From positions 303,757 through 367,756 of the forward strand of contig JAUYTZ010000018.1 in NCBI GenBank assembly GCA_030694965.1: a stretch of 64,000 nucleotides of DNA, given 5' to 3'. The position numbers and the translations under genes are program-made. Numbering within the stretch: position 1 is the first letter of the stretch; every line of letters starts with the position of its first letter. Positions 1 to 37,247 of the stretch are shown here, in pieces. The notes beneath the pieces were generated by a model. It did no database searches, was not told the DNA's origin, and was given only the letters and a program-made list of their open reading frames with translations. The DNA comes from Candidatus Paracaedibacteraceae bacterium (GTDB taxonomy: Bacteria > Pseudomonadota > Alphaproteobacteria > Paracaedibacterales > CAIOTO01).

Positions 1-1
1 C

Positions 2-1171
2 ATCTCTGATGCTTATGCTAATATATCCACAGTTAAGTTATTTTCTCATACAAATCGCGAGGCTAATTATGTTCGCGAGGCAATGAGAGAATTTATGGTG
101 CCAGTTTATGAGCAGCAGCGTCTTGTTAGCGCTTTTGATCTTAGTACGCATGCGATGAGCATGCTCCTTGTTTTCTCAACTGCAGCAATTGCTATTTGGC
201 TTTGGATGAAAGGTCAAGTAGGGGTTGGTGTTGTCGCTGTTTCTATCGCTATGTCACTGCGATTCAACAGCATGTCCCAATGGGCCATGTGGGTTGTGGC
301 GGATTTATTTGAGCATATTGGCACAGCCCAAGATGGAATGGAGATGTTATCTAGACCTATTGCTTTAGTAGATAATCCCTATGCAAAACCTTTAATCGTA
401 AAGTCAGGAACTATATCTTTTGAAAATGTGTCTTTTTCTTATGATGATGGAAAGCAGGTACTAAAAGACTTTAATTTAAAAATATTGCCAGGAGAAAAAA
501 TTGGTTTGGTTGGTCGATCTGGTGCAGGTAAATCTACTATTATTAATTTACTATTAAGGTTTTATGATGTGAATAGCGGCAACATATCTATTGATGGACA
601 AAATATACGCTATGCTTGCCAGGATAGTTTACGCAGTCAGATTGGCATGGTAACACAAGATACATCTCTTTTGCACAGATCAATACGTGATAACATTCTT
701 TATGGGCGTCCTGATGCTTTAGAGCATGAAATGGTATTAGCTGCAAAACGTGCTGAGGCGGATTTATTTATTCGAGATCTTCAAGATGCAAATGGACGTG
801 TTGGATACGATACGCATGTTGGTGAAAGAGGGGTAAAACTGTCTGGGGGCCAACGTCAACGAATATCTATCGCTAGAATTATGTTAAAAAATGCCCCTAT
901 TTTATTGTTAGATGAAGCAACAAGTGCTTTAGATAGTGAAGTTGAGTTAGCTATCCAAAGTAGCCTCTATACTTTAATGAAAGGTAAAACAGTTCTTGCT
1001 ATAGCTCATCGATTATCTACTATTGCTGCAATGGATCGTCTGATTGTCTTAGATGAGGGGAAAATTGTAGAAGAAGGTAGTCATAAAGAGTTGTTAAACA
1101 AAAAGGGTTTATATTTTCAATTGTGGAATCATCAGAGTGGAGGTTTCTTAAGTGATGGCTATTCACAATGA
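2..1171 (+). CDS. ABC exporter, fused permease/ATPase half-transporter (5' end cut by window edge)
   Basis: The frame of the 83..1171 ORF is open back to nt 2 (ISDAYANISTVKLFSHTNREANYVREAM...), so the gene starts upstream of the window. NBD motifs: Walker A GRSGAGKST, signature LSGGQRQR, Walker B ILLLDEATSALD, H-loop AIAHRL. A hydrophobic TM segment precedes the NBD. Confidence 0.9.
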   Translation: MSDAYANISTVKLFSHTNREANYVREAMREFMVPVYEQQRLVSAFDLSTHAMSMLLVFSTAAIAIWLWMKGQVGVGVVAVSIAMSLRFNSMSQWAMWVVADLFEHIGTAQDGMEMLSRPIALVDNPYAKPLIVKSGTISFENVSFSYDDGKQVLKDFNLKILPGEKIGLVGRSGAGKSTIINLLLRFYDVNSGNISIDGQNIRYACQDSLRSQIGMVTQDTSLLHRSIRDNILYGRPDALEHEMVLAAKRAEADLFIRDLQDANGRVGYDTHVGERGVKLSGGQRQRISIARIMLKNAPILLLDEATSALDSEVELAIQSSLYTLMKGKTVLAIAHRLSTIAAMDRLIVLDEGKIVEEGSHKELLNKKGLYFQLWNHQSGGFLSDGYSQ

Positions 1172-1201
1172 TTTCAATCTTACATATAGGTTAGTGGTGT
1201 T

Positions 1202-1972
1202 TTGAAGATATCTAATGGGGATGTGCATGTATGGTTTTCTTTAACAAAAGAGCTAAATGATGTAAACTTACTGGCCCGATATAAAGGTTTGTTATCACAA
1301 GATGAATGTAAAAGATTTAATAGTTTTTTTTACAAAAAAGATCGCCAATTGTACTTAATCTCAAGAGCTTTACTGCGTACAACTTTATCAGAATATTCTT
1401 TAGTTTCTCCATGTAATTGGAAATTCTCAAAAAACAATAATGGGAAGCCTTTTATTAATAATAAAAATTTGAGTGAAGAAAAAATTTGTTTTAACCTTAG
1501 CCATACTGATGGTTTAGTTATGGTAGGAGTGACTAAAATGCAAGATATAGGGGTTGATGTTGAACAAGTCTCACGAAATTTTGATTATATGGATATTGCT
1601 TATAGTAATTTCGCGGCAGATGAAATTACTGTTCTTGAATCTATGTCCGGTTCTGATCAAAAAGAATTTTTCTATAAGTACTGGACTTTAAAAGAGTCTT
1701 ATTTAAAAGCAAGAGGAGATGGATTAACAATGCCTTTGAACCTATGCAGTTTTGCGTTATCAACTTGTAGTAAAATAAAATGTAAGTTTTTCGATCAGGC
1801 TGTAGATTGCCATTCAAATTGGAATTTTTTGCAATTCAGTCTTGTCAAAAATTACATTAGTTCCATATGTTTAAAAAGAAATCAAAACTATTCCCCAAGA
1901 ATAAGGGTAAGGCATTGTGTGCCTTTAATAAATAATAAAGAACTTAAAAATATTAAATTTTTGTCATCCTAG
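1202..1972 (+). CDS. Sfp-type 4'-phosphopantetheinyl transferase
   Basis: Sfp-family motifs FNLSHTDG, GVDVE and WTLKESYLKARG. TTG start. Lies 30 nt after the ABC gene and converges on the PKS. Confidence 0.85.
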   Translation: MKISNGDVHVWFSLTKELNDVNLLARYKGLLSQDECKRFNSFFYKKDRQLYLISRALLRTTLSEYSLVSPCNWKFSKNNNGKPFINNKNLSEEKICFNLSHTDGLVMVGVTKMQDIGVDVEQVSRNFDYMDIAYSNFAADEITVLESMSGSDQKEFFYKYWTLKESYLKARGDGLTMPLNLCSFALSTCSKIKCKFFDQAVDCHSNWNFLQFSLVKNYISSICLKRNQNYSPRIRVRHCVPLINNKELKNIKFLSS

Positions 1973-1988
1973 TGAATCCTTTAGGCGA

Positions 1989-4925
1989 TCAGAGCTGTTC
2001 TTGTATAAGTGTTACTTGGTCTTTCAGTGTTGCTGATACAAGCATTTTTCGGGCAGGCACTTTTATGTTAAAAGATTGGTTTACTTTGCGAATTAAGCTT
2101 GTAATGAGAAGTGAATCTCCCCCTAAGCTAAAGAAATTTGATTCATCTTTGATATTATCACAGCCAAGAATATTAGACCAAAGACTTAGCAAGACAGCTT
2201 TTACATCTTTTTGTTTTATTAATAAAATATTGTTTGCTTCATGGTTATCATTTGATGATGCTGGCTCTTTGGAGTTTATGTGATTCTTTTTAAGAGCACA
2301 AGTTACCTCAGGCGCCATCCATTTCGGACCATAAAATGGATAAGTAGGTAAGTGAATGGCTTTGCCACCTGTGCAAAAATAAGAAAGATTAACGGGATAT
2401 CCATAAGTCCAGAGCGCTCCTATGGAAGTCATTATATCGATGCTAATCTCTTCAGAATGATTAGGATTCATGGGTAATGCCTCAAAACCTAAAGACCATG
2501 CCATTGAAGAAAGAGTTTGGCCTGTCCCAATTTCTATAAAAATTGGTTCTTGAAAAAAATCATGCATTACTTGCAATGAATCTAAAAAATAAACAGGTTT
2601 TTTAGCTTGATCTACAAAATAGTCTGACGGCATCTTATGCCCTTTATTATAAATTTGGCCCGTGACGTTTAGTGCAATTGGTATTTTTGTTGGTTGCATG
2701 TTAATTTTGGATAAAGTGCTTTTAAGAGCTGTTAATGCTGATTCAATGAGAGGGGAATGAAAAGCCCGATTGGTCTTAAGAATTGTTGAGCGTGCCGTTT
2801 TGCCTATATTATTTTTAAAAATTTGAATTTCTTCTACTGTACCAGATACTACACAGCCATTCGTAGTATTAATAGCTGAAATACACAGATTAAGCCTTGA
2901 TTTTCTAAGAAGTTCGGTTGTTTCAAAAGCGCTCATATTGACGGCGAGCATTGCCCCTTGAGGGCAATTCTGCATAGACTTTCCCCTCTCCACTACGAAC
3001 TTTACAGCGTCTTCTAAGCTCAGTATTCCAGAAAAATAGGCTGCCGTAACTTCACCAAGGCTATGGCCTGCAACTCCGGCAGGTTTAATGCCTAGAGAAA
3101 GAAGTGACTTTCCTATTGCGTATCCAAGAACAAACAAAGCAGGTTGAGCAATGACTGTTTGATTCATTTCTTCTTCAGGAAAAGCATCATCAAAAAGTGC
3201 TCTTTTTACGGTAATTTTTAAATTTTCTTCAAGATATTGTATGCATGTTTCAATGTTATCCAAAAAACCTGGCAGCGTATTCGCAAAAGCTTTAGCCATG
3301 CCAGGACGTTGACTTCCTTGGCCTGTAAATAAGAAAATGGCAGGCTTTGGACCGTTGATGGGTGCTTGCCTTCTATGAATGATTTCATTTTTATTTAGTT
3401 TTTCTGCAATTTCTTTGCTTGTTCGTCCGCACACTACAAGCCTTTCTGTAAATTCAGTTCGACCATTTGTTAGTGTGTATGCAACGTTTTTGAGATTAGG
3501 ATCGTTTTTAATTAAGTAGTTACTTAGGCGATTCGTTATACAATTTAATGTTTCTAAATCAGCCGCTGAGAGTTGTATAATATGAAATGAATCTTCATTT
3601 TTAGCTGGTTCATGTTCTGTTTGTGGGGCTTGTTCTAGTATGATGTGGGCATTTGTTCCTCCTATACCAAAAGCACTAATAGCCGCTCTGCGCTGATTAA
3701 GATTAGGCCATAGATGTTCTTTGTTATTTTGAACACATAGTGGTGAATCATTTTTTTCCATAAAAGGATTTAGTGTATCAAAGTTTGCAAGTGGAGGTAT
3801 TTTACCTTCCTTAAGCACTTTCATTGTTTTGATAAGTGAAGCAAGTCCTGATGCTGAATCAAGATGACCAATATTTGCTTTAAGAGCACCTATAGCGATC
3901 TGACCTTTTGATGCTCCAAGCCCTTTATATGCTTCTGAGGTTGCAGTCCATTCAATAGGGTCTCCTATGCGTGTGCCTGTTCCATGTGTTTCAAGGTAGC
4001 CTATGGATGATGCTTCAATATTGGCGTTGTGAATTGCTTGCTGGATCACTGAAATTTGCCCAGAAATAGATGGAGAAAAATAGCCTGCCTTTGCAGAGCC
4101 ATCATTATTGATAGCTGTGCCCAAGATAACGCCATAAATTTCTGGAGCCTCGGTCGGAAGTGAAATTAAACGTCTTAGCACAACGCAGGCCACTCCAGAA
4201 CCTTCAACAACTCCATCAGCTTTTTCGTCAAAGGGTCTACAAATACCACTTTCAGAATTAATGCCTCCAGGAATATGTAAGTATCCGCCCTGTGGAAAAG
4301 CAATTCCTGCTGCAACAACTATGGCTTGTTCGCAATCTCCATTATTTAATGCTTGGCAAGCTAAATGCAAACTAACTAGAGATGAGGAGCATGCCGTTTG
4401 AATGGAAACAGCGGGTCCTGTTAAATTAAGCTTATACGCAATTAAGCTGGCTATAAAATCAGGCTCATTTCCGTGTATGATTTGTTCTAGAAAGTCTGGT
4501 TCAAGAGGCCCTTGAGATAACATGGCTCTCGCATATCCGCTCCCACTTCCTGAAGCAAAAACGCCTGTTACTGGTCTGTTAGCAGCATTGGATTTTCCGT
4601 AACCTGCATCTTCAAGTGCGCACCAAGCAGTTTCAAGCATTAGTCGATGTTGTGGATCCATCATTTCCGCATCACGGTGATTAACTCTGAAAACTTTATG
4701 ATCAAATCTATTGGCATCTACAAGGTATCCTCGTACAGGTATATACTCTGGATCATTTATTAAGAATTCAGGAACTCCGGTTTCTCTCAGTTCTTCTTTT
4801 GTTAAACGAGTAGTGAGCTCCTCACCTTTTAGTAAAGAGCTCCACCAATCATCTAATTCACGGGGACCAGGAAGCCTAGCAGAAACGCCAAGTACAGCAA
4901 TATCTTTAGAATTATTTCGTATCAT
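1989..4925 (-). CDS. Type I polyketide synthase, single module KS-AT-carrier (no KR/DH/ER/TE)
   Basis: KS: DIAVLGVSARLPG at the N-terminus, active-site Cys in QTACSSSL (Cys179), His motifs ETHGTGT and KANIGHLDSASG. AT: FLFTGQGSQ, GHSLGE (Ser622), RAFHS (malonyl-type xAFH). C-terminal carrier domain LGGDSLL (Ser938). Confidence 0.92.
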   Translation of the reverse strand: MIRNNSKDIAVLGVSARLPGPRELDDWWSSLLKGEELTTRLTKEELRETGVPEFLINDPEYIPVRGYLVDANRFDHKVFRVNHRDAEMMDPQHRLMLETAWCALEDAGYGKSNAANRPVTGVFASGSGSGYARAMLSQGPLEPDFLEQIIHGNEPDFIASLIAYKLNLTGPAVSIQTACSSSLVSLHLACQALNNGDCEQAIVVAAGIAFPQGGYLHIPGGINSESGICRPFDEKADGVVEGSGVACVVLRRLISLPTEAPEIYGVILGTAINNDGSAKAGYFSPSISGQISVIQQAIHNANIEASSIGYLETHGTGTRIGDPIEWTATSEAYKGLGASKGQIAIGALKANIGHLDSASGLASLIKTMKVLKEGKIPPLANFDTLNPFMEKNDSPLCVQNNKEHLWPNLNQRRAAISAFGIGGTNAHIILEQAPQTEHEPAKNEDSFHIIQLSAADLETLNCITNRLSNYLIKNDPNLKNVAYTLTNGRTEFTERLVVCGRTSKEIAEKLNKNEIIHRRQAPINGPKPAIFLFTGQGSQRPGMAKAFANTLPGFLDNIETCIQYLEENLKITVKRALFDDAFPEEEMNQTVIAQPALFVLGYAIGKSLLSLGIKPAGVAGHSLGEVTAAYFSGILSLEDAVKFVVERGKSMQNCPQGAMLAVNMSAFETTELLRKSRLNLCISAINTTNGCVVSGTVEEIQIFKNNIGKTARSTILKTNRAFHSPLIESALTALKSTLSKINMQPTKIPIALNVTGQIYNKGHKMPSDYFVDQAKKPVYFLDSLQVMHDFFQEPIFIEIGTGQTLSSMAWSLGFEALPMNPNHSEEISIDIMTSIGALWTYGYPVNLSYFCTGGKAIHLPTYPFYGPKWMAPEVTCALKKNHINSKEPASSNDNHEANNILLIKQKDVKAVLLSLWSNILGCDNIKDESNFFSLGGDSLLITSLIRKVNQSFNIKVPARKMLVSATLKDQVTLIQEQL

Positions 4926-5250
4926 GAACTTTTCCTTAAGCTCAAAAAATCAAATTTTAGCTAGTAGCAAAAATTACATTGAAGGTGATTTGTTGCATTA
5001 ACTATATTAAAATTTACACAGATCGTATCTTAGTTATTTGCTTATACATCAAGCGCATATTTTTTTATTAGTAAGTCATGTTTTTGTAAATAATTTCAAT
5101 AACTTTTTGCAAGATTTTTTTAAGAAATTATTTAATAAATTCAACTAAATAAAAAATTGTTTATAAAAATTTTTTAAACTCAGGCAGAGTGGACATAAAT
5201 TGTTGTTTTATGATGAAAACAGTAAATTATTAAAAAAGAATAAAAAGCAT

Positions 5251-5321
5251 TTAGTACACAAGAGAATCTATATTTCTTTTTCCACTTGTGACCAATTAAA
5301 GGCAATGATAGAAATCACTTA
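5251..5321 (+). promoter_or_regulatory. Shared leader/promoter module, copy A (upstream of the oxygenase-LamG-esterase-P450 operon)
   Basis: About 70 nt aligns by hand to the reverse complement of 16678-16748. The core 5282-5310 ccacttgtgaccaattaaaggcaatgata matches in 28/29 positions. It contains a plausible sigma70-type TTGTGA-N17-TAGAAA. Weaker collinear blocks continue to about 5440. Confidence 0.6.
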
Positions 5322-5471
5322 TTCAAAGGCATGTGGGGCGGCAAACCACGAGACAAAAACTCTCTTAATTTTGCTTTATCTTTATCTAGTCCTTAAAAAG
5401 TATTTAAAACCTAAGAAGGTTATAGCAAGTAGCTTATTAAGATATTTGGGGCCTAAAAGGAAAATGAAAAT

Positions 5472-6374
5472 ATGCAAGAAAAAGTTAATATAGATCTTCT
5501 CCTAAAGGCTGCCAGTTCACATTTAATATCTTTCACCGATTTACCGATTTCTCCTGTAATTATTAATGATACATTGAATGTTTCAGAAGAAGACATTCAT
5601 GAAATAGTTGACAGGTACATCAATCATGGTTTTGCAATTGTGCATATTGTTTCAGAACGTCCTTCGCCTGAAACAATAATATCTTTAGGGCACGTTTTTG
5701 AGCTTGGAAAACCTTTTGTTCCTCCTTTATACACTATGGGTGAGTATAAAGCCTCACCCATTGCAAAAATTTCAACACAAGGATGTTCCGCCACTCATCC
5801 AATTTTTCAGCGCGAAGTTGAAGTGAAACTGCATTGCGATGGCACACTACAAAAAATTGGTTTTGTTAAAACAACCGTTATGCTTTGTGAAATGCCTGGT
5901 GCCAAAGGAGGTGAAAATATATTCTTTAATGCCACAGCAGCTTACGCTGAATTGCTAGAAACAGATTTGGATGCTGCAATTGCCATGGCAACCCATGGCT
6001 CGCTAATACGCCAAGCAAACATAAATGGTTGTAGTGATAAAAATATAGGACCAGTTTTTTCTGTAGATAATGGAAAACTTATCTGTAATTATTCTGTGAC
6101 TGAAACGGATAAATTTGTTGCTGCATCTTGTCTTAAAGCTGCTGATCTTGGTCGTGGCGTAGAGTATATGCGAAAAGCTTCCCAACCAGGTGGGGCCCAT
6201 TATTGCCAGGTACGGTTAGAGGCAAATCAAGCTATTATTTTTTCAAATGCTAAACTTGCTCACGGAAGAAAATCATACCATAACGCCCTAGGTTTGAGAA
6301 GATGTCTCTACAGGGGATTATTTTTAAATTATCCAAAAGTGGTTAATAAAAGGCGGTTAAAAATTTCTGTATGA
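5472..6374 (+). CDS. Fe(II)/2-oxoglutarate-dependent oxygenase, TauD/TfdA (clavaminate-synthase-like) family
   Basis: HxD facial triad LHCDG, downstream GGENIFF block (family GGxTxF), distal His/Arg in KLAHGRKSY...RR. Length is about 300 aa. Confidence 0.7.
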   Translation: MQEKVNIDLLLKAASSHLISFTDLPISPVIINDTLNVSEEDIHEIVDRYINHGFAIVHIVSERPSPETIISLGHVFELGKPFVPPLYTMGEYKASPIAKISTQGCSATHPIFQREVEVKLHCDGTLQKIGFVKTTVMLCEMPGAKGGENIFFNATAAYAELLETDLDAAIAMATHGSLIRQANINGCSDKNIGPVFSVDNGKLICNYSVTETDKFVAASCLKAADLGRGVEYMRKASQPGGAHYCQVRLEANQAIIFSNAKLAHGRKSYHNALGLRRCLYRGLFLNYPKVVNKRRLKISV

Positions 6375-6449
6375 TAATGAGATTACCAAAAAAACTCCTT
6401 ATTTTGTATTTATGCAACTTAATGTGTTTTAAAACTATACGAAGTAAAA

Positions 6450-7238
6450 ATGGAGAAGAAAATGAATTTGAATTTAAAAATTAAAGATAAAATTAATCCA
6501 TCAAACCAATCACTGACTTTAAAAGGGGATTGGAATTTTGAAAATGATTTTTTAGATTCTTCTGGGCTAGGAAATGATTTATCTCCAAATAATAGCCCTT
6601 GTCTTATTAAAGATTCTAATTTTTCGGGCGCTGTTAAGCTAGATGGGCGCACACAATCTTTGGAGGGAAAGAACCCAGCGGTGAACACAGAAGGAAGTTA
6701 TACAGTTGCTGCGTGGGTTCGTCTTGATAGCTCGCTTATGAGAGAAGGACTCTCTCTTGAAACCGGAGAATACGCACTAACCGCAATTAGTCAAGATACA
6801 CCTACTCATAGCAACTTTTACTTAGGCCTTCGTCAAGTTGATGAAAAACGATCAGAGAGCATAGTGATTTCTTCATTGAGGTGGAATTTTACGGTGGCGC
6901 CCATTGATGGGACTCAAACAGGTCCTGTTGAATGGCAGCATGCGTATACTAAAAGTCCTCTTGATGATTCAATTTTAGATAAATGGTTTTTACTTGTAGG
7001 TGTGTGTGATGCTGCTGCGAGAACAGCTAGTATATACGTACCCACAATAAATGAAGAAGGGATTATTCATTGGCCAGCTAATTTTATTCAGTTGCCTGCA
7101 AAAGGAGGAATCCAAGTTGGTAAAGGGCGTTGGCTCACAAAAGCTGTTGACCATTGGCCTGGAAGTATAGGGCCAGTTAAGATTTTCTCTGGTGTGATGT
7201 CAAAAGAAGAAGTTTATAAGATTTATAATAATCTTTAA
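6450..7238 (+). CDS. LamG / concanavalin-A-like jelly-roll domain protein (no signal peptide)
   Basis: Typical Laminin_G_3 N-terminal pattern: GDWNFENDFLDSSGLGNDLSP...FSGAVKLDG...SYTVAAWVRLDS. Confidence 0.6.
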   Translation: MEKKMNLNLKIKDKINPSNQSLTLKGDWNFENDFLDSSGLGNDLSPNNSPCLIKDSNFSGAVKLDGRTQSLEGKNPAVNTEGSYTVAAWVRLDSSLMREGLSLETGEYALTAISQDTPTHSNFYLGLRQVDEKRSESIVISSLRWNFTVAPIDGTQTGPVEWQHAYTKSPLDDSILDKWFLLVGVCDAAARTASIYVPTINEEGIIHWPANFIQLPAKGGIQVGKGRWLTKAVDHWPGSIGPVKIFSGVMSKEEVYKIYNNL

Positions 7239-7320
7239 TTTAATAATTTCCGCTGATCTAATTTTTACCTATATAAGAATTAAATTGTGAAATAGAAATG
7301 TTTGAAAGGAACTTTATTTT

Positions 7321-8337
7321 ATGGTGAAAAATATCAATATGGAAGAATCACAAAATTCCTGCAAGGCTGTTTCACACCCGCCTTTTGATGATGAGCTTAA
7401 GCCAATTTTGCATGAAATCCTTAAAAAAATTAAAGTTCCTTTCACTCTTGATCTTATTGACAAGGCTCGCGAAGCTATGAATTTAGGAAGTTTAACAGAC
7501 GATCAAATTCGGCGAGGAGGGGCTTTTGAATTTGAAGAAAAAAAGATTCCAGGTCCTGAAGGAGCGCCAAGCATTTCTGTTATTGTATGTAGACCTAGAG
7601 CAACACCAGGACCCCACCCAGTAATATACAATATACATGGAGGAGGGATGGTTTCTGGAAATTATCGGACTGCAGAACTTGCTAGAGAACTTAATAGAGC
7701 CGAAGCTTTGCAAATGGCTGTAGTTTCAGTAAACTATCGACTAGCTCCTGAAAATCCTGACCCCGCACCAGTTGAGGATTGCTATGCTGCATTAGTTTGG
7801 CTTGTGAAACATTCAAAGTCATTAAAGTTAGATGCAAATCGAATCATTGTTAGTGGTAATAGCGCGGGAGGAGGGTTAGCAGCTGGAGTGGCTCTTTTAG
7901 CTCGCGATAGGGGAGGCCCTTTTTTAATTGGACAGATGCTTCAGTGCCCGATGCTAGATGACAGATGTGACTCTTTCTCAATTAAACAGATGAAAGGGGT
8001 AGGTCTGTGGGAATCGACTTCTAATCTCACAGGCTGGTCAGCCTTGCTAGGAGACAAAAGAGGAACTGAAAGCGTTTCATGTTATGCTGCTCCTGCTCGA
8101 GCCAAAAATTTTTCTGGTCTTCCTCCTGCTTTTATAGACGTAGGTGCTGTCGAAGCTTTAAGAGATGAGGCAGTCTTTTATGCTAATCATATTTGGCAAG
8201 CAGGAGGGGATGCTGAGTTGCATGTTTGGAGCGGCGCTTTTCATAGTTTTGATCAGTGGGCGCCAGATGCTATTGTTTCAAAATCTGCTGACCAAGTTCG
8301 AATAGATTGGATGCGTCGCTTATTAAAACGAAATTAA
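7321..8337 (+). CDS. alpha/beta-hydrolase, hormone-sensitive-lipase-type esterase
   Basis: Oxyanion motif HGGGMVSG, nucleophile elbow GNSAGGG (GxSxG), and downstream Asp and His (HSFD). Confidence 0.85.
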   Translation: MVKNINMEESQNSCKAVSHPPFDDELKPILHEILKKIKVPFTLDLIDKAREAMNLGSLTDDQIRRGGAFEFEEKKIPGPEGAPSISVIVCRPRATPGPHPVIYNIHGGGMVSGNYRTAELARELNRAEALQMAVVSVNYRLAPENPDPAPVEDCYAALVWLVKHSKSLKLDANRIIVSGNSAGGGLAAGVALLARDRGGPFLIGQMLQCPMLDDRCDSFSIKQMKGVGLWESTSNLTGWSALLGDKRGTESVSCYAAPARAKNFSGLPPAFIDVGAVEALRDEAVFYANHIWQAGGDAELHVWSGAFHSFDQWAPDAIVSKSADQVRIDWMRRLLKRN

Positions 8338-8359
8338 AGAAGAAATAAAAGAGGATTTT

Positions 8360-9559
8360 ATGAAACAGTTTCCTTATGCTACCGAATGTTCTTTAAATCC
8401 TAATTGTCTCGTTGATCCTACTTTTCATGCGGCCGGAAATCCTCATGCGCTTTGGTCTTGGATGAGAGAAAATGAGCCAATATATTGGCATGAGCCCACG
8501 AAATTTCCTGGCTTTTGGTCTATTACACGCCATGAAGATATAAGAGAAGTGTATGGGAATCCTGAAATATTTAGTTCAGCTCGGGGTGTTTTATTGCGCC
8601 AAGAAAAATCAGGGGACGACCCCGGCGGCGGCTTAACTTTAGCTTTAACAGATCCTCCTCGCCATAAGCAGCTTCGAGCGATCATGACAAGTTGGTTCTC
8701 AATAAGTTATGCAAAATCTCTTGAAAGCGCTATAAGAAGAAAAATCAAAGAACTTTTACTTGAAGCAGTAGAAAAAAAAGTAATTAATTTTACACACGAT
8801 ATATCATCTAAGTTAACACTCTTCGTCACGTGCCATATTTTAGGTATACCTCCTAAAGATCATAAAGACGTTTTGCATTGGGCTCATGAGTCTTTTGAAA
8901 AGGCAGTTCCTTTAGCCTCTCATAAAGAATTTATGCTATATTTTTGTGAATTAATGGAAAGCAAGCGTGCATGCCCCAGTTCTGATTTAGCGAGTGCTAT
9001 TGTTCATGGCATGATTGATAATAAAAAACTTGCTGAAGAAGAAATATTATTGAACTTTGAGAATTTAATAGGAGCAACAGAAAATGCAGGCTTATCAATA
9101 TCAAGCGGAGTTCTTGCATTTATTGAATACCCAGAGAGCTGGAAATTATTACAGACTGATCGTAAACTTATAATATCTGCTACCGAAGAGATTCTTCGAT
9201 GGGCGTCAAGTGCATCTCATAGTATGAGGACAATTAAAAAGACTTATACTCTTAATAACACTAATTTGTTAGCAAACCAAAAAATAGTACTTTGGCTTCC
9301 ATCTGCGAATAGAGATGATAAAATCTTTGAAAATCCTTTTAAATTTGACATAACACGTACCCCAAATAGGCACATAGCTCTTGGATATGGCGAGCATTTT
9401 TGTATTGGAAATGCTCTTGGTAGAATGCAAATTCGTATATTGCTTGATGAACTTCTCGGCTTTGATTGGATTCTTGAACTTGAAAGTGCACCCATTCATC
9501 TTAGGTCTATTTATGTTAATGGGCCAGAAAATTTACCTATTAGGTTTGTAGATAAGTAA
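8360..9559 (+). CDS. cytochrome P450 monooxygenase
   Basis: Heme-binding loop GYGEHFCIGNALG, ExxR (EEILRW), about 400 aa. The start lies 22 nt after the esterase stop. Confidence 0.9.
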   Translation: MKQFPYATECSLNPNCLVDPTFHAAGNPHALWSWMRENEPIYWHEPTKFPGFWSITRHEDIREVYGNPEIFSSARGVLLRQEKSGDDPGGGLTLALTDPPRHKQLRAIMTSWFSISYAKSLESAIRRKIKELLLEAVEKKVINFTHDISSKLTLFVTCHILGIPPKDHKDVLHWAHESFEKAVPLASHKEFMLYFCELMESKRACPSSDLASAIVHGMIDNKKLAEEEILLNFENLIGATENAGLSISSGVLAFIEYPESWKLLQTDRKLIISATEEILRWASSASHSMRTIKKTYTLNNTNLLANQKIVLWLPSANRDDKIFENPFKFDITRTPNRHIALGYGEHFCIGNALGRMQIRILLDELLGFDWILELESAPIHLRSIYVNGPENLPIRFVDK

Positions 9560-9579
9560 TCTTACAGATTGAGTATTAA

Positions 9580-10362
9580 TTATCTCTTCACAAATTGGCA
9601 TAGTTTTTTATGAATGAGCTGAGGGCTAGCAATGATTCCAGTTCCGAGTGGAGTTATGATCCCTCCAGCTTCTTGCACAATAAGGGAGCCCGCAGACCAA
9701 TCCCAAGGAGATAGTTCATTTTCATAAAATCCATCAAAGCGACCACATGCAACCCAACAGAGATCTAAAACTGAGCTTCCACAACTCCTTATATCCCTTA
9801 CTTTTAGAAGTAGATCTGACATGATTTTCGTTTGATATAAGCGTTTTCTACGATTGTAAGAATATTCAGTTGATAGCAGAGCCTCGGAAAAGTCTTTTAT
9901 TTCATTTACTGCTATTTTGGAGTCATTAAGAACAGCACCATTATTTTTTATGGCTGAAAAGATCTCATTTCTTGCAATGTCATAAATAACTCCAACCTTA
10001 GGCTTCCAACACCACCCATCAAATTCTTCGCATGAGATACTAACTGCCCAGTGTGGAATTTTGTATATATAATTTATTGTTCCATCAAGTGGATCAAAAA
10101 CCCACCTCAAGCCGGTTTTAGACTTGATGTTAGTTCCTTCTTCTCCAATGATGCCATCATTGGGTCTTGCTTGCATTATGATATTTTTGATGACTGTTTC
10201 ACCTAATTTATCTGCGTCTGTGATCGGATTTGTATTGTCCGATTTAAATTCAACCTGTATTGGATGCGCATAAGATAAGATTTTTTGCCCTGCAGAAATA
10301 GCAGCTTTTGTGGCTAGTTCTAGTAATTCATTTTCATCATTGTTCGTCATACTACCCTTCAC
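9580..10362 (-). CDS. inositol monophosphatase family protein (SuhB-like)
   Basis: IMPase motifs IGEEG, DPLDGTINY and WDWSAG. Confidence 0.85.
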   Translation of the reverse strand: MKGSMTNNDENELLELATKAAISAGQKILSYAHPIQVEFKSDNTNPITDADKLGETVIKNIIMQARPNDGIIGEEGTNIKSKTGLRWVFDPLDGTINYIYKIPHWAVSISCEEFDGWCWKPKVGVIYDIARNEIFSAIKNNGAVLNDSKIAVNEIKDFSEALLSTEYSYNRRKRLYQTKIMSDLLLKVRDIRSCGSSVLDLCWVACGRFDGFYENELSPWDWSAGSLIVQEAGGIITPLGTGIIASPQLIHKKLCQFVKR

Positions 10363-10561
10363 TTTTAATCAACAGTTTGTTTTCTTTCATCACCTATTCA
10401 GTAGCCTGTTATAGCCGGGCTTATCCGGTTGCACTTTATCAGTTTAAGATAAATATTCTATCGTTTTTTAGGGCAGCGGATGATAGGATGATTAGGCATA
10501 ATAATATCAATTTTAAAGTTTCTCATTTGTATTTCCTTAGTATTTATATAATACACAATTA

Positions 10562-13500: not shown

Positions 13501-13651
13501 TATTTAATTCATAATATGATAATTTTTTTTCTTTCCATATGAGAGCTGTAGCTTTGGGGGTTCTATGAGCATGACTTTCGAACGCAAAATGTAGGGAATT
13601 AAAACCCTCTAGTTGTTTGTTTGATAGTTTATTTTTGCTTTTTTGTAACAT
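10562..13651 (-). CDS. Non-ribosomal peptide synthetase, single module A-T-C (terminal condensation domain, no TE/R)
   Basis: A-domain cores: LKAGAAYTLIDP (A2), FFTSGTTGEPKGV (A3), NGYGPVEST (A5), YSTGDLG (A7), GRNDRQVKVHGHRIEL (A8), PLTPQGKLD (A10). T domain LGLNSL (Ser558). C domain HHIAFDGYS (His737/His738, Asp742). Confidence 0.92.
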   Translation of the reverse strand: MLQKSKNKLSNKQLEGFNSLHFAFESHAHRTPKATALIWKEKKLSYYELNNSASFLANQIISSGVDIGSFVPILLPRSPSLVISLLAVLKAGAAYTLIDPCWPKSRIQKVINALKPKFIITKNKSSSFNGINILPPIIPHNTIEKTFPSIDVNPSSPSTVFFTSGTTGEPKGVISTHKGTMRLFKENNFVDFNSSTIIPLAAALPWDALSLELWGALVNGGSAWLIDEPYLSSAELRKGISKYGVNTAWITSSLFNISVEDDINSFTGLKQLMIGGERLSPTHVKLFLTRHPQIKLINGYGPVESTIFTTTHHISLSDCEISSGIPIGTPVPQTQVYILNEKMEICADDEVGQIYINGTGLAIGYLNDPRLTHNKFKEIAIEGVTKRVYSTGDLGFWKNNLLHFHGRNDRQVKVHGHRIELSDVEHQIEQHLHNIKSCRVVSKNNPTTTSQELIAFCIPLKLGDKLHDAHQQLKSKLVAYQCPSKVIPVDSFPLTPQGKLDEQALIESSMLETKNNTYHSNESYKTPIEKTIGKILSQILNQDYFPVDVPFSQLGLNSLNMGQLCSRLGKELNCSISLSKIYKHHTISSLGEFLKDNQNNVNMHVYFDSNKMNQMQLMYLTQHLVNPSNLASRCLMTWKIEGDLSLSILKEAINYVHINNKSLRSKYLLDFDSSDKSTSVPFPVLEILPSEESAEFAVNSLRSELSKDLNPLEGKIWKTAVISLANSKEYFFGCAIHHIAFDGYSEHLLAESLSEGYNIFSNSPNFSNHYKSSKLISPLSIYPSLDIEVLKEVKDFSKNLEGTPEIIWPQNFNKPQNDFNLHAENVTLILSAKTEIIDEFALKNRVSRFEVLFHAWIHALKKVTSQTDFCVGIPIRQRNHFINKNTINCHLNMLFPRITKKIFKNGILGLKETSRLIQRSLANQDIPLTQILQIIKSQKTGRPPLFQTLFALQDNPSPKLVLKELKTEFIRQPYLELPLELHAEIWPKENGNLCLIISWRSSLISDSCIQNIAKYFEQYLEQILNWSLP

Positions 13652-13718
13652 TTCTCGACTTCACAAAATATAAAAATGAATATCAGATATTGATTTTATT
13701 ATTAAAATTTTTTTAAGT

Positions 13719-14978
13719 TCATGTTGAGATTCCAGCCGTATTTCTTAGATTAAATTCTGGATTTAAATTATATATTAACACGACATTTTTACTCACTCGA
13801 TCTACCTCTTTGTATACAGCTGAAGCATATTTATCTGAGAATTTAGGAATTGAATTTAAAACCTTACATTCTTCAATTTCTTTATCACTAAACGGAAGCG
13901 CCATACCGATAAGAGGGTAAATCTCTATCGCAGCATGAGTATCAAACTGCTTGGTGCGTTGTGAATCTAAAATTTCATTTGCTTCATTGAGTTCAAGCCC
14001 TACAATCAGTGTATCTTTGCCATTTACAAATCCACGCGCAATACCTAAATGCCCTTTTAAATAACTCATTACTTTTCTTCGATCTTCCATAAAATCTAAA
14101 TAAAGAGAGTTCGCTTCAACATCTCCGAAGCAATGGGCCAATTCAACATCAGGTGAAGGCCATTTCATAAGAAATCGACGGTAGTTGAGAGTTTCGGTCT
14201 TACGATTTTCTTCGGGATCGCGGGCATGTGGAAGGTGAATAGCCCTCACTTTTTCAGAAAGAATAATAGGGATTTTATTTTTGCATATCCGGTAACTCCA
14301 TTCCAGATCATCAACGCCCCAACCCTGAAAAGTTTCATCGAAATATAGATCTAGTTCTCGAACTACCTCAAGCGGTAAAGCAATAAAACCCGTCCACCCA
14401 AATGCCCATGGAATAACGTGCCTCACTTGAAAACGTGGATCTTTTGGTTTTCCTGTAGAGTTTTCAAGATCCATTATAGCATCTTGATAGTTTTCGTAAG
14501 GTTTTACTTGAACACTTTCTATAAAGCCTTCATTGTTATTTTCGTAGCCAATAACTTGTCCAACAACGCATATTCTTTGTTCGAACGCAAAGTGAGTGTC
14601 ATAGAGGTTTTGCAAAGCATTTGGTGGTAAAAGCGTGTCTGCATCCATTTGTACAATAACTTGGCCGGTGGCTTGGCGCATTGCAAGGTTTCTTGCCCAA
14701 GGAATCATAAAATTATCAGGAGACAAGACTGTAATAATATTAATTTTATTTATGTACTTATTGCATAAAGAGATGAGGTTCTCGCAATAATCCATGGCTC
14801 CAATAATTACTTCAAAGTCATCTTTATGCATTGTTTGATGGGCTAAGGCTTCTAAAACTACAGCAATATTTTCTAATCTTTGTTTGTACGGAATTGAAAC
14901 ACTTAGCTTTTTTTGATTTATTTTCCCCCTTACTATTTTATGTGAGACGTTAAACTGCTCTTTAAAATTTAGCTTCAT
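13719..14978 (-). CDS. family 2 glycosyltransferase (GT-A fold) with extra C-terminal domain
   Basis: LSVSIPY N-terminal strand, DxD motif QMDADT, GWGVDDLEWSYR block as in the galactosyltransferase-like C-terminal region. About 130 additional C-terminal residues are unassigned. Confidence 0.75.
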   Translation of the reverse strand: MKLNFKEQFNVSHKIVRGKINQKKLSVSIPYKQRLENIAVVLEALAHQTMHKDDFEVIIGAMDYCENLISLCNKYINKINIITVLSPDNFMIPWARNLAMRQATGQVIVQMDADTLLPPNALQNLYDTHFAFEQRICVVGQVIGYENNNEGFIESVQVKPYENYQDAIMDLENSTGKPKDPRFQVRHVIPWAFGWTGFIALPLEVVRELDLYFDETFQGWGVDDLEWSYRICKNKIPIILSEKVRAIHLPHARDPEENRKTETLNYRRFLMKWPSPDVELAHCFGDVEANSLYLDFMEDRRKVMSYLKGHLGIARGFVNGKDTLIVGLELNEANEILDSQRTKQFDTHAAIEIYPLIGMALPFSDKEIEECKVLNSIPKFSDKYASAVYKEVDRVSKNVVLIYNLNPEFNLRNTAGIST

Positions 14979-15032
14979 TATGTTGCTCCTTTTTAATTAA
15001 CTTGTTCTACAAAGAATTATTTTAATTATGGG

Positions 15033-15455
15033 TTATAGGCCAAATATCACTGTTCCACGTTCGTCTGCTTTCAAAGCAGGATTGTATATAATTTCCCAAA
15101 TATGATCATCTGGATCTGCTACGTATCCTCGAATTCCTCCATGTGGAGGGGCATCAGCAACTCTCAGAATTTTACCGCCATAATTTGATAGTATATTAAT
15201 ATATTTTTTAACTTCATCGGGCGATTTAACAAGATAAGCAAGTGTAATACTCCCACCTCTCGGCAGCTTAGATTTTGTTACGTCTTTTTCCAACTCAGAT
15301 TGCAGCCAAGTGCTAAGAATAAAACCATTCATTTGGTACATCGCCGTATTATCATCTTCTTTAACGGGAGTCCAACCAAAGCCTTTGATGTAAAATTTTT
15401 TGGAAAGGCTTAAATCCTGCACACCTAAAGTTATAATTGCTATTTGTTGCTTCAT
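15033..15455 (-). CDS. VOC (glyoxalase / bleomycin-resistance) family protein
   Basis: IITLGVQDLSLSKKFYIKGFGW N-terminal beta-alpha-beta-beta-beta module and C-terminal DPDDHIWEI. The ATG at 15455 is preferred over the TTG at 15467. Confidence 0.75.
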   Translation of the reverse strand: MKQQIAIITLGVQDLSLSKKFYIKGFGWTPVKEDDNTAMYQMNGFILSTWLQSELEKDVTKSKLPRGGSITLAYLVKSPDEVKKYINILSNYGGKILRVADAPPHGGIRGYVADPDDHIWEIIYNPALKADERGTVIFGL

Positions 15456-15490
15456 AATCAAATCCAAATTATATAATTATTGTTTTATTA

Positions 15491-16567
15491 TCAGTTATTT
15501 TTGAAATCTTCCATAACTTCTCTTATGACTTTTTGAGCCAATGAGTTTTCTACGTTGTTTGAATTAGATAACCCTGCTGATATAATAAGTGCTTTCCAAA
15601 AAGCCCAAGCGCGACCTCGATGCCATGTTCTATTGTCAATAGCAAGTCGGTCACGAAATACTTTGCGGCTTTTAGCATCAAAAAATGTCCACGCAATAGC
15701 AAAGTCACAAGCTGGATCACCAACAGAAAGTAATCCAAAGTCTATAACAGCTCTCAGGTGCCCATTTTGCAAAATTAAGTTGCCAGGGCTAATATCACCA
15801 TGAACCCAAACTGGGGGATTCTCCCATTTAGTTGTTGCTCCTAAATCCCAAATTCTTTTGGCTACTTTGCTGTCTAAGGAGGATTCAAGCACTTTAATGG
15901 CATTGATTGCCTCATGCTCATAGACTGAAATATCTCCTCCGCGATAGTAATTTTGCTTGCCAGCTGGAGGTCCGTTTGTGGGGTTCATTTTATATAACAC
16001 AGAAAGGAATCTTGCAAGATCATTCGCAAGCTTGTTTTTATCAGCCTGTTTGCTGATTGCTGCTGTTTCACCAGGAATCCAATTATAAATTGACCAATCC
16101 CACATGTAACCATGACCAGGTTTTCCTAGGCCAAGAGGTGTAGGTATTGTAAGAGGAAGCTTAGAAGAGAGAAATGGAAGCCATTTTTGTTCTTTTTTTA
16201 CTTGGTTGGCATATGATTCGCCACTAGGAAACCTTAATATCATTTCTTGACCAAGATGATAGGTTCTGTTATCCCATCCGCTTTCATTTACTGGAACAAT
16301 GGGTAAATGAGCCCAATGAGGAAATTGTTCTTCAACAAGAATTTTAGCGGTTACTGGATCAATAATATCTTTCATATTTTCTCGGTTTAAGCTCATACTT
16401 CTCATATTAATAATTCTACTTTTTTGAAAACAATTACTTCCTAAATTTAATAATTTAAAAGGTCCTGCACATGTATGTTTTGGCATTACAATTATTCCAA
16501 AAGATATAATAGAGAAACTTAGAATTGAAATAAACCATTTGCTAGTTTTTTGCGCTATGTAAAACAT
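15491..16567 (-). CDS. aminoglycoside-phosphotransferase-fold (APH/choline-kinase family) kinase; start uncertain
   Basis: Catalytic loop HGDISPGNLIL and VIDFG...GDPACD, with an N-lobe GWDNRTYHLG. The first ~30 codons are hydrophobic (KWFISILSFSIISFGIIVM). The real start may be an internal Met, for example at 16375. Confidence 0.8.
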   Translation of the reverse strand: MFYIAQKTSKWFISILSFSIISFGIIVMPKHTCAGPFKLLNLGSNCFQKSRIINMRSMSLNRENMKDIIDPVTAKILVEEQFPHWAHLPIVPVNESGWDNRTYHLGQEMILRFPSGESYANQVKKEQKWLPFLSSKLPLTIPTPLGLGKPGHGYMWDWSIYNWIPGETAAISKQADKNKLANDLARFLSVLYKMNPTNGPPAGKQNYYRGGDISVYEHEAINAIKVLESSLDSKVAKRIWDLGATTKWENPPVWVHGDISPGNLILQNGHLRAVIDFGLLSVGDPACDFAIAWTFFDAKSRKVFRDRLAIDNRTWHRGRAWAFWKALIISAGLSNSNNVENSLAQKVIREVMEDFKNN

Positions 16568-16677
16568 TCTAATAGCAACCTTTCTAAGTTTGAGGTGCCT
16601 CTAAGGACTGTGTGAAGACAAGGTCAAATGTAAGAAAATATTCTTTCTATCAATTTGATATGCCTAATATTTTTTTA

Positions 16678-16748
16678 TGAGTGATTATTATCATTGCCTT
16701 TATTTGGTCACAAGTGGAAAAGGGAATTTAAATTCTCTTAAGTATTAA
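16678..16748 (-). promoter_or_regulatory. Shared leader/promoter module, copy B (upstream of the kinase-VOC-GT2-NRPS operon)
   Basis: The reverse complement aligns to 5251-5321. Core 16689-16717 reads ccacttgtgaccaaataaaggcaatgata on the minus strand, with TTGTGA-N17-TAATAA. Collinear blocks (aggcat, agtcctta, ttagaaaggtt) continue down to about 16570. Confidence 0.6.
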
Positions 16749-21541: not shown

Positions 21542-22375
21542 GTGAGGGTTATTTTGTTTGATTTAATAGGAAAGACAGCTTTTATAACAGGAGCCTCTAA
21601 AGGCATAGGGGAAAGGTGCGCTTACGCACTATCTAGCGCAGGGGCAAAAGTAATCATTGCTGCAAGACAGTTAGATTCATTGAAGTCAGTCGCTGACAAT
21701 ATTATAAGAAACGGTTATAAAGCTTTACCTATTCAATTAGATGTGACTGATAAGCACGCTGTGAATAAATGTTTTGACCAATTAGCTCAAAATGGAGAAG
21801 TTATAGACATACTTATCAACAATGCGGGTATTAGTATGATGACCCCAGTTTTTGAAAGTAAAAGAAACCAGCAGAATGATACTAAAGATTATTTCCAAGA
21901 TATGCTGCAAACTAATGTGATGGGAGTATGGTATGTAACAAAAGCCGTAGCCAACCACATGAAGGAGAAATGTATTTCTGGGTCAATTATTAATATTGCA
22001 AGTGTGTGTGGATCCAATAGGTTAAGAGCAAATTTGACAGGGTATTGTGCTTCTAAAGCAGCTGTAATTCAAATGACAAAAGCTTTGGTAGGCGAATTAG
22101 CTACAGCGAATATTCGTATAAACTGCATTTCTCCAGGTCTCTTTCACACTCCACTTAATGATGATAGAATAGGAATAGATGAAACCCGCAAACAAATTGA
22201 AAAAACGATACCTCTTCATTTTATTGCTGATCCTTGTGAAATTGATGGGGCAATTCTTTATCTTTCTTCAAACAAGGCTTCACGTTATGTAACTGGATCA
22301 TGTTTGACTGTTGATGGTGGCGCTTCATGGGGTGGGGTTTATGATTATTATGTGTTTAAAGATGTTGTGTACTAA
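21542..22375 (+). CDS. short-chain dehydrogenase/reductase (SDR)
   Basis: TGASKGIG cofactor motif, NNAG, catalytic YCASKAA. GTG start. Confidence 0.85.
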   Translation: MRVILFDLIGKTAFITGASKGIGERCAYALSSAGAKVIIAARQLDSLKSVADNIIRNGYKALPIQLDVTDKHAVNKCFDQLAQNGEVIDILINNAGISMMTPVFESKRNQQNDTKDYFQDMLQTNVMGVWYVTKAVANHMKEKCISGSIINIASVCGSNRLRANLTGYCASKAAVIQMTKALVGELATANIRINCISPGLFHTPLNDDRIGIDETRKQIEKTIPLHFIADPCEIDGAILYLSSNKASRYVTGSCLTVDGGASWGGVYDYYVFKDVVY

Positions 22376-37240: not shown

Positions 37241-37247
37241 AAATAAT

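Follow-up and report, generated by a model that had tools for sequence, protein, structure and literature searches.

An uncharacterised nonribosomal peptide-polyketide gene cluster with putative aminonucleoside enzymes in a Candidatus Paracaedibacteraceae genome and on a Megaira plasmid

The stretch of DNA analysed here, referred to below as the window, comprises 64,000 nucleotides (positions 303,757 to 367,756) of contig JAUYTZ010000018.1, a 368-kb contig from the metagenome-assembled genome (MAG) of a Candidatus Paracaedibacteraceae bacterium (assembly GCA_030694965.1). Its left-hand part contains a hybrid nonribosomal peptide synthetase (NRPS)-polyketide synthase (PKS) gene cluster, and the window proteins correspond to NCBI accessions MDP3372312-323. 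The family is placed in the Holosporales of the Alphaproteobacteria, in keeping with the endosymbiont-like alphaproteobacterial host surmised in an earlier reading made from the sequence letters (the original prediction). That reading had also called a thiotemplate NRPS-PKS cluster with a phosphopantetheinyl transferase, an exporter, oxygenases, a glycosyltransferase and a kinase in about the first 16.7 kb; Pfam matches and intact catalytic motifs bear out this call, and the twelve open reading frames (ORFs) from the exporter to the kinase have the positions, strands, Pfam domains and intergenic gaps that had been described for them. The genes of the cluster region are listed below; A, T and C denote adenylation, carrier and condensation domains, KS and AT ketosynthase and acyltransferase domains, and the Pfam domains of the first twelve genes scored above the gathering score.

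1-1171, plus: ABC half-transporter, 3' part (exporter); Pfam ABC_tran, ABC_membrane
1202-1972, plus: Sfp/HetI-type 4'-phosphopantetheinyl transferase (PPTase); Pfam ACPS and AASDHPPT_N
1989-4925, minus: type I PKS with one module, KS-AT-T; Pfam KS, AT and PP-binding
5472-6374, plus: TauD-family Fe(II)/2-oxoglutarate (2OG) oxygenase, the marker of the family; Pfam TauD with HxD...H triad
6450-7238, plus: LamG/concanavalin-like protein, partner of TauD; Pfam Laminin_G_3
7321-8337, plus: hormone-sensitive-lipase-family esterase; Pfam Abhydrolase_3 with HGGG and GNSAG motifs
8360-9559, plus: cytochrome P450; Pfam p450 with EILR and HFCIG motifs
9580-10362, minus: inositol-monophosphatase (IMPase)-family sugar or nucleotide phosphatase; Pfam Inositol_P, 182 bits
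10562-13651, minus: NRPS, A-T-C; Pfam AMP-binding, PP-binding and Condensation
13719-14978, minus: soluble glycosyltransferase of family 2 (GT2); Pfam Glycos_transf_2 with DAD motif
15033-15467, minus: VOC/glyoxalase-bleomycin-resistance-family protein; Pfam Glyoxalase
15491-16567, minus: APH-fold kinase; Pfam APH, 141 bits, with HGDISPGN and DFG motifs
17105-18721, plus: 538-aa multi-pass membrane ORF, AT-rich (29% GC); no Pfam match
19029-21431, plus: glycoside hydrolase family 20 (GH20) beta-N-acetylhexosaminidase; Pfam Glyco_hydro_20 and 20b
21542-22375, plus: short-chain dehydrogenase (SDR), right-hand end of the cluster; Pfam adh_short

The intergenic gaps are 75, 82 and 22 nt in the plus-strand operon that begins with the TauD gene, and 23-35, 54, 67 and 199 nt in the minus-strand operon. 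Housekeeping genes start directly after the SDR gene with a tRNA-guanine transglycosylase, and the rest of the window, with phosphofructokinase, DnaJ, DnaK, the E2 subunit of pyruvate dehydrogenase and Omp85, agrees with the ordinary metabolism and information processing that had been proposed for 22.5-64 kb. No NCBIfam equivalog model was reached by any of the window proteins; the top NCBIfam model for the PPTase is HetI, with a score under its cut-off. The 538-aa ORF has no homologue in any related locus, although it lies between the kinase and the GH20 gene, and is probably an insertion-like gene that stands outside the pathway while falling within the cluster limits.

The left edge of the window cuts the cluster. 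L012, a Logan contig from the same sequencing run as the contig matching the window, overlaps it with 100% identity (L012 16133-18048 equals window 1-1916), and a window position is therefore the L012 position minus 16132. The ORF at 2-1171 is the 3' two-thirds of a 615-aa ABC gene (L012 15456-17303) that starts 676 nt upstream of the window. From left to right L012 encodes a LamG protein, a methyltransferase, a redoxin, an SDR, a second LamG protein, an ABC transporter, a third LamG protein and a 2OG-Fe(II) oxygenase, followed by an A-T NRPS (638 aa), a thioesterase (TE), an aminotransferase, a pyrimidine-nucleoside phosphorylase (PyNP), the full-length ABC gene and the PPTase. The A-T protein of a related locus, L002, used as query retrieved a 54%-identical protein, P0136, from the window's own 368-kb contig, and L012 is the Logan contig bearing it. 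Four genes that accompany homologues of the A-T-C protein are missing from the window, namely those for the A-T NRPS, the thioesterase, the class-III aminotransferase and the nucleoside phosphorylase. This block lies beside A-T-C in every low-GC relative with enough flanking sequence, including the Megaira plasmid described below, the exception being a Streptomyces canus locus (L005) that has A-T and TE without aminotransferase or phosphorylase.

The biosynthetic gene cluster, about twice the size first described, continues from window 1-22375, its right-hand portion, onto L012. Counted from the 2OG oxygenase to window position 22375, it is at least about 30 kb long; if the set of LamG, ABC, methyltransferase and redoxin genes is included, which is also conserved in L004, it is probably about 38 kb. 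To the left of the window start, 8 kb or more belongs to it, and probably 16 kb. Neither the description of the cluster as compact, about 16.7 kb, nor the deduction of one amino acid plus one malonyl unit survives this extension: the L012 genes carry the cluster leftward and GH20 and SDR carry it rightward to 22375, and a second A-T with a histidine-type code, a thioesterase and an aminotransferase/phosphorylase pair lie just upstream. The placement of the two right-hand genes in the cluster follows from homology, with GH20 copies inside the clusters of L002 (59% identical), L010 (50%) and L039 (49%), and with an SDR 59% identical to that of the window situated directly upstream of the A-T gene on the Megaira plasmid. 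The cluster is real, intact and of secondary-metabolite type, and its genes have the lengths of their orthologues elsewhere, giving no sign of decay.

At the far left of this extension, the methyltransferase, redoxin and SDR (L012 1424-4406) each begin with a signal-peptide-like stretch. L004 has counterparts of the methyltransferase (70% identical) and of the redoxin (61%), and no close orthologue of the SDR was found there. These three genes may form a separate periplasmic module and not contribute to metabolite tailoring.

A tblastn search of PLSDB recovered plasmid pPCS201 (AP017965.1) of 'Candidatus Megaira (Megaera) polyxenophila' strain PCS, a member of the Rickettsiaceae (Rickettsiales). 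One locus of this plasmid (L039, MPCS_01592-01618) carries nearly the full gene set of the window cluster at 43-72% protein identity, namely VOC, GT2, esterase, GH20, 2OG oxygenase, KS-AT-T PKS, IMPase, PPTase, TauD, LamG, P450, APH, ABC (54% identical to the ABC gene of the window), SDR, A-T, TE, class-III aminotransferase, PyNP and A-T-C NRPS. The copy differs in being plasmid-borne, in its 29% GC, in its rearranged gene order and in the fusion of TauD with LamG; it is flanked by RelE/CopG, integrase and transposase genes, and additionally contains an MFS transporter, an ADP/ATP carrier and a GT61 gene. Megaira genomes have been described to contain NRPS/PKS systems, for which no product was given (PMC10132079). 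One uncharacterised cluster is common to two orders of protist-associated intracellular alphaproteobacteria, and is plasmid-borne in one of them.

A metagenome scan with an alignment of the TauD protein added 26 more loci, and all cluster proteins were compared with every locus in a tblastn table. The gene set as a whole is found again in about 30 loci, comprising low-GC metagenomic contigs, high-GC loci and the Megaira plasmid, and is not the one-off that it had first appeared to be, given the near-complete copy on a Rickettsiales plasmid. Orthologues of nearly all cluster genes co-occur in L002-L004, L009-L011, L013-L029 and L039. The low-GC contigs (L002-L004, L009-L011, L013, L018 and L021) have 31-42% GC. 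The high-GC loci have 65-72% GC, and two of them are actinomycete genomes or plasmids. The high-GC contigs, of 65-71% GC and unassigned taxonomy, have a core operon of A-T(-TE), aminotransferase, PyNP, TauD and esterase, with all five genes present in L016, L020 and L025, and L022 and L023 being short contigs that end after TauD; near this operon are genes for P450, A-T-C, PKS, GT2, APH, IMPase and SDR. Neighbour-joining trees of five proteins separate the low-GC sequences, as a single clade, from the high-GC clade. A scan of the GTDB species representatives with a GT2 alignment, using very strict peptide patterns, returned only three loci, all from Actinomycetota MAGs and all matching in GT2 alone, which shows that close low-GC copies are rare among these representatives. 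In one of the three (L006 10001-12730) the lone GT2 homologue, 47% identical, lies beside an AlkZ-like DNA glycosylase and an AraC regulator, with no NRPS near it.

At greater distance, the S. canus locus (L005, CP108065.1) shares with the cluster a KS-AT-T, a TE, an A-T with histidine code and an A-T-C, as well as a RidA-esterase fusion that has 61% identity to the esterase of the window. It further encodes two ATP-grasp ligases, a Mur-ligase homologue, two polysaccharide deacetylases, a PhyH protein and an FAD oxidase; no gene for TauD, an aminotransferase or a PyNP lies within 23 kb. Loci of this type were not used in considering the product because only the assembly-line core and the esterase are common to them and the cluster. 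Distant relatives of TauD with 31-33% identity are present on a Bacillus cereus plasmid (L041) and a Streptomyces plasmid (L040), and a Bacillus thuringiensis plasmid matches TauD as well as the B. cereus plasmid does. In L041 (NZ_CP106676.1 269660-288466) the relative is accompanied by a class-III aminotransferase, a PyNP (41%), a peptidyl carrier protein (PCP) and adenylating enzymes, and in L040 (Streptomyces sp. NBC_01244 plasmid) by a class-III aminotransferase and an NRPS, with no PyNP annotated. There may thus be a wider, uncharacterised superfamily of TauD-marked clusters. Literature searches on Paracaedibacter polyketides, Megaira PKS, Nik-phosphorylase and aminoribosyl genome mining found no description of the cluster, which, together with the lack of equivalog matches, agrees with the original prediction, which recognised no characterised pathway in this gene set. 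On the whole, the cluster family is uncharacterised and horizontally distributed, and appears to combine a three-carrier NRPS-PKS line with nucleoside-derived aminosugar chemistry.

The source cluster contains three carrier-protein enzymes, namely the A-T-C, the stand-alone A-T and the KS-AT-T, along with the thioesterase and the PPTase. The PKS has a malonyl-type AT and neither reductive nor loading domains. Its motifs are intact, with TACSSS, HGTGT and GHL supplying the Cys-His-His of the KS, GHSLGE and RAFHS in the AT, and GGDSL with the carrier serine. Its top PDB match is the full-length KS-AT-acyl carrier protein (ACP) chain 8XJU, of equal length, with CurL second, and orthologues in L009, L010, L028 and L039 are 45-53% identical. 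In the A-T-C protein the C-domain motif HHIAFDG, the carrier serine and the A10 lysine are intact; its homologues have 59% (P0010, P0011), 52% and 50% identity, followed by others at about 40% across actinomycetes.

The codes of the two A domains were read by alignment to a fragment of GrsA, for which the procedure returned the known code DAWTIAAICK. The A-T-C code, DAL(I/M/L)MGGIFK, is near the common valine code (Val/Ile-like), of which DALWIGGTFK is a published instance (PMC12283262). The code of the upstream 638-aa A-T protein, DSACIAEVWK, agrees in 9/10 positions with the histidine code DSALIAEVWK, which has been reported to accept beta-OH modification. Both codes are conserved in the aligned loci, six of low GC and S. 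canus. The thioesterase (PF00975, L012 11914-12660, GHSMG motif) overlaps the stop codon of the A-T gene; it is fused to A-T in proteins of 906-936 aa in L016, L020 and L029, and to the aminotransferase in L009. The nearest natural PDB relatives of the P450 are P450sky (4L0E/4PWV/4PXH, 248 bits) and OxyD (3MGX, 188 bits), both described as aminoacyl-PCP hydroxylases (PMC5238595), and by this relationship it is probably a hydroxylase of a carrier-bound amino acid. P450 orthologues with 42-55% identity occur in L011, L020, L021, L025, L028, L029 and L039. Taken together, the intact A/T/C and KS/AT/ACP motifs, the PPTase, the releasing enzyme and the conservation of the gene set as a unit are those of a thiotemplate NRPS-PKS system.

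The aminotransferase finds its top PDB relative in SapH (7QZJ; E = 1e-107, 364 bits), with BioA next at 192 bits; it is 43% identical to SapH over 415 residues and keeps Trp32, Lys289 and Gly323. SapH acts on (pseudo)uridine-5'-aldehyde, yielding the 5'-amine, and has 37.7% identity to LipO (PMC10127198). The cluster enzyme would, by homology, belong to this nucleoside-5'-aldehyde type. The start of the phosphorylase gene overlaps the aminotransferase stop, in a manner indicative of translational coupling, and its product matches PyNP 1BRW over the full length with 365 bits, so that homology identifies it as a genuine pyrimidine-nucleoside phosphorylase of the kind represented by LipP. In L010 a non-homologous PNP_UDP_1 phosphorylase occupies the position of PyNP.

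The third component of this putative nucleoside unit is the TauD protein, in which the H121-x-D123...H264 triad is intact. Its homologues are few: of 778 candidates that a shared-word pre-selection drew from a database of 5.8 billion proteins, only 59 scored E<=1e-5, which makes TauD a narrow marker. Its gene directly follows the aminotransferase-phosphorylase pair in seven loci (L009, L016, L017, L020, L022, L023 and L025). TauD is a candidate nucleotide or nucleoside 5'-oxidase comparable to LipL, the rival role being that of an amino-acid beta-hydroxylase. A LamG gene adjoins TauD in L013 and L021, and the two are fused in frame in Megaira MPCS_01607 (564 aa, L039 19953-21647), corresponding to the separate neighbouring genes at window 5472-7238. 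Including this partner, the cluster of the source genome has four LamG paralogues, three of which are on L012 (265-1089, 4508-5278 and 7160-7939); the high-GC relatives have none.

Of the remaining genes, the esterase is the best conserved of the cluster family, with 57-66% identity in both low-GC and high-GC relatives. The IMPase-family protein has the motifs GEEG, DPLDGT and WDWSAG, and its orthologues are 54% (L004), 47% (L025) and 50% (L039) identical. GT2 is distinguished by a conserved C-terminal extension of about 170 aa; its orthologues are 72% identical in L002, 63% in L004 and 48-57% in L010, L011, L025, L029 and L039. The VOC protein, with orthologues of 58-69% identity in L002, L004, L010 and L039, might act in product binding or self-protection. 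The nearest PDB relatives of the APH-fold kinase are the antibiotic kinases APH(2'') and Mph, and its orthologues are 40-59% identical. The start of the kinase is uncertain, the long form of 358 aa having about 35 N-terminal hydrophobic residues and the NCBI annotation giving 301 aa. The N-terminus of GH20, MKIIFTFFFLLLSIENA, is signal-peptide-like. Where the low-GC clusters have GH20 and APH, the high-GC relatives have a GH4 glycosidase and a BadF-type ATPase: GH4, joined in L020 by a BadF/BcrA-type (GlcNAc-kinase-like) ATPase, lies beside the A-T gene (L020 2060-4404; L025 3133-4398). These are non-homologous enzymes with analogous roles, and the replacement suggests that sugar removal and phosphorylation are conserved functions of the family.

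The DNA has 36.2% GC at 1-16748 and 37.9% at 21.5-64 kb, so that the AT-richness noticed by eye in the original prediction is present and small; only 16.7-21.5 kb is plainly AT-rich (30.8% GC). A codon-level comparison of 26 genes (13 from L012 and 13 from the window, including the 538-aa ORF at 29% GC) with the housekeeping genes gave an average coding GC of 36.3% for the cluster and 39.5% for the housekeeping genes (p = 1e-4). This gap lies mostly at first codon positions and therefore reflects amino-acid composition. Third-position GC is 26.3% for the cluster and 27.5% for the housekeeping genes, with a correlation of r = 0.84 in relative synonymous codon usage. Since third-position GC is at the housekeeping level, recent acquisition is not supported, and AT-richness loses its value as a sign of accessory origin. 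There is no tRNA, integrase or repeat at the cluster borders in the window and L012, and base composition was accordingly dropped as genomic-island evidence.

Elsewhere in the window, 34400-37300 is gene-poor, with about 29% GC and only short, degraded-looking ORFs, one of which (36890-37159) resembles a transposase N-terminus by eye; this region is possibly a decayed mobile element. A 496-aa ORF at 60783-62273 matches no Pfam family at E<=1e-5 and is overlapped by long antisense ORFs.

Given these gene complements, we propose, with moderate confidence, that the product is small and joins a peptidyl-ketide to a 5'-aminonucleoside or 5-aminoribose, being made by a line for a Val-like residue, histidine and malonyl units together with a LipL/LipO/LipP-like unit; its exact structure is not derivable from sequence. 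In such a pathway TauD would oxidise the 5' position of a pyrimidine nucleotide or nucleoside, and the resulting aldehyde would be aminated to the 5'-amine by the aminotransferase; the phosphorylase would then strip the base to leave 5-amino-5-deoxyribose-1-phosphate. The A-T protein would load histidine, the P450 would hydroxylate it on the carrier, and the TE would off-load it, following the logic of NikP1/NikQ/NikP2. Fusion of the TE with A-T in high-GC loci, and with the aminotransferase in L009, makes the newly formed amine a possible acceptor, onto which the TE would transfer the acyl group from the carrier. A Val-like residue would come from the A-T-C protein, whose terminal C domain would attach it, and one malonyl-derived C2 unit from the PKS. 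Phosphorylation by the APH kinase could be reversed by the IMPase phosphatase, as cryptic phosphorylation or self-protection, and a sugar attached by the soluble GT2 could be removed by the periplasmic GH20, in a cycle of masking and unmasking. VOC and the two ABC exporters would complete self-resistance, and the esterase, the 2OG oxygenase and the SDR would also act somewhere in the pathway.

Several observations weigh against this proposal. In the aminotransferase, Asn176 of SapH is replaced by Ile. TauD has no sequence match in the PDB; its AlphaFold2 model (pLDDT 89.8) finds in Foldseek only generic TauD-fold proteins (BBOX1, TmpA, CarC), and none of the 59 homologues is named as LipL-type, the named ones bearing generic TauD labels. 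Position 278 of the A-T-C code depends on the register (I or W) of the alignment to the GrsA fragment, and any order given to the three modules, or acceptor to the terminal C domain, is presumptive. A LipM-type nucleotidylyltransferase was not found in the window cluster, on L012 and L039, or among those ORFs of the relatives that were examined; an NDP (nucleoside diphosphate)-aminoribose donor for GT2 is therefore not supported, and GT2 was not adopted as a LipN-type aminoribosyltransferase acting on an NDP-sugar. Similarly, no locus has a gene for a LipK transaldolase like serine hydroxymethyltransferase, which places the cluster outside the GlyU liponucleoside class. Finally, PyNP is absent from the high-GC loci L024 and L029, a distribution that sits more easily with a pathway devoid of nucleoside chemistry. 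In that alternative the substrate of the aminotransferase would be an assembly-line intermediate with a beta-keto or aldehyde group (as for the AMT domain of mycosubtilin synthase, or for transaminases that act after reductive release), TauD and the P450 would hydroxylate amino acids, and the phosphorylase would be a salvage or unrelated enzyme, giving a modified, glycosylated Val-His-ketide peptide. The PKS, having no ketoreductase, would make a beta-keto group available, the TE-aminotransferase fusion of L009 fits an order of release followed by amination equally well, and TauD-family enzymes commonly hydroxylate amino acids. We nevertheless consider this alternative unlikely, because the aminotransferase is far nearer to SapH than to other solved class-III enzymes (364 versus 192 bits); the phosphorylase gene, translationally coupled to that of the aminotransferase, is conserved across two phyla and gives way to a non-homologous counterpart in L010; and the triad of aminotransferase, PyNP and TauD occurs on the B. 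cereus plasmid, with no PKS in the 18.8 kb examined.

An iminosugar could also be envisaged, with the IMPase dephosphorylating 5-amino-5-deoxyribose-1-phosphate, a cyclic imine forming, the SDR reducing it to a trihydroxypiperidine and the NRPS acylating the latter; GH20 would then be a resistant copy of the target, and the product a hexosaminidase inhibitor. The class-III aminotransferase, the IMPase-family phosphatase and the dehydrogenase are all conserved in the cluster, a trio that also defines the azasugar operons of Bacillus (gabT1/yktc1/gutB1), and GH20 is conserved in the low-GC clusters. Yet the high-GC relatives have GH4 and not GH20, which agrees more with the removal of a sugar than with a duplicated target, and the SDRs are generic; this variant, while compatible with the data, is distinctly improbable. 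An envelope component that is aminoacylated or glycosylated, by analogy with D-alanylation, or a silent relic, seems very improbable: GT2, GH20, the ABC transporters and the signal-peptide-bearing methyltransferase, redoxin and SDR of L012 are of envelope-associated types, and DltA-type models hit this A domain as they would any other, but the PKS, the PCP-hydroxylase-type P450, the antibiotic-kinase-like APH and the VOC protein are of secondary-metabolism types, all genes are intact with full motifs, and the cluster is patchy and plasmid-borne. A D-alanylation-like or aminolipid envelope system was rejected as the principal explanation in view of the PKS, the P450, the APH and the nucleoside enzymes. 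Hardly tenable at all is a compact 16.7-kb cluster whose product would be built from one amino acid and one malonyl unit, with oxidation and perhaps glycosylation or phosphorylation to follow. Inside the window only a single A domain and a single KS-AT-T are indeed visible, but the A-T, TE, aminotransferase and phosphorylase genes upstream are the companions of A-T-C in the low-GC relatives, and GH20 and SDR on the right are conserved cluster members, which refutes both the limits and the module count.

If the conjugate of an aminated nucleoside or ribose is indeed the product, the gene set points to an uncharacterised branch of nucleoside-antibiotic chemistry that is linked to an NRPS-PKS line and proceeds without NDP-sugar activation. 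To our knowledge, aminoribose and 5'-aminouridine nucleoside antibiotics have been described almost only from actinomycetes. Many of these hit validated targets such as MraY or RNA polymerase. The occurrence of the cluster in obligate intracellular symbionts of protists, once on a plasmid, makes it a testable candidate for a symbiont-made defensive or host-interaction molecule. A more inclusive proposal, which we offer tentatively and regard as doubtful in its entirety, is that this is a mobile cluster common to protist endosymbionts of the Holosporales (on the chromosome) and the Rickettsiales (on a plasmid), specifying a new class of peptidyl-ketide aminonucleoside or aminoribose (possibly iminosugar) compounds through a LipL/O/P-like route lacking the NDP-sugar step, with a two-component TauD-LamG oxygenase, and serving the host as a defensive or killer factor. 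Of enzymological interest are the possibility that the TE is a transferase that forms amides, the pairing of TauD with LamG, and cryptic phosphorylation and glycosylation.

Among known systems, the closest parallel to the nucleoside unit is the LipL-LipO-LipP-LipM-LipN cassette of A-90289, caprazamycin and muraymycin, in which LipL converts UMP to uridine-5'-aldehyde, LipO forms 5'-amino-5'-deoxyuridine and LipP releases 5-amino-5-deoxyribose-1-phosphate (PMC4902027). As in that cassette, a TauD-type oxygenase, a 5'-aldehyde-type aminotransferase and a pyrimidine-nucleoside phosphorylase are clustered, with a glycosyltransferase and an antibiotic-type kinase nearby, so that the cluster appears to resemble the first three steps of the aminoribosyl pathway. 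Unlike it, the window cluster lacks the LipM nucleotidylyltransferase and the LipK transaldolase, ties the cassette to an NRPS-PKS line and resides in an alphaproteobacterial endosymbiont, with TauD as a candidate counterpart of LipL. A second parallel is the SapB/SapH (PumI/PumG) pair of pseudouridimycin (PMC10127198; 7QZJ), whose aminotransferase is the 43%-identical one that shares the catalytic lysine and the uracil-stacking tryptophan; in both systems the 5'-amine would be the point of peptide attachment. The two differ in the candidate oxidase (TauD-type here, a GMC flavoenzyme in pseudouridimycin), in the presence here of a phosphorylase after the aminotransferase, and in the making of the peptide, by an NRPS here and by ATP-grasp ligases there.

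The stand-alone histidine-code A-T, the P450 near P450sky and OxyD, and the discrete or fused TE may be likened to the NikP1/NikQ/NikP2 (nikkomycin), BpsD/OxyD/Bhp and P450sky types, with the difference that the TE of the cluster may act by transfer instead of hydrolysis. Jawsamycin and the pacidamycin-type uridyl peptides carry a thiotemplate acyl or peptidyl chain on a 5'-aminated uridine derivative, a logic like the one proposed here, and the window cluster would differ from them in adding a phosphorylase, a LamG partner, GH20 and an IMPase-family phosphatase.

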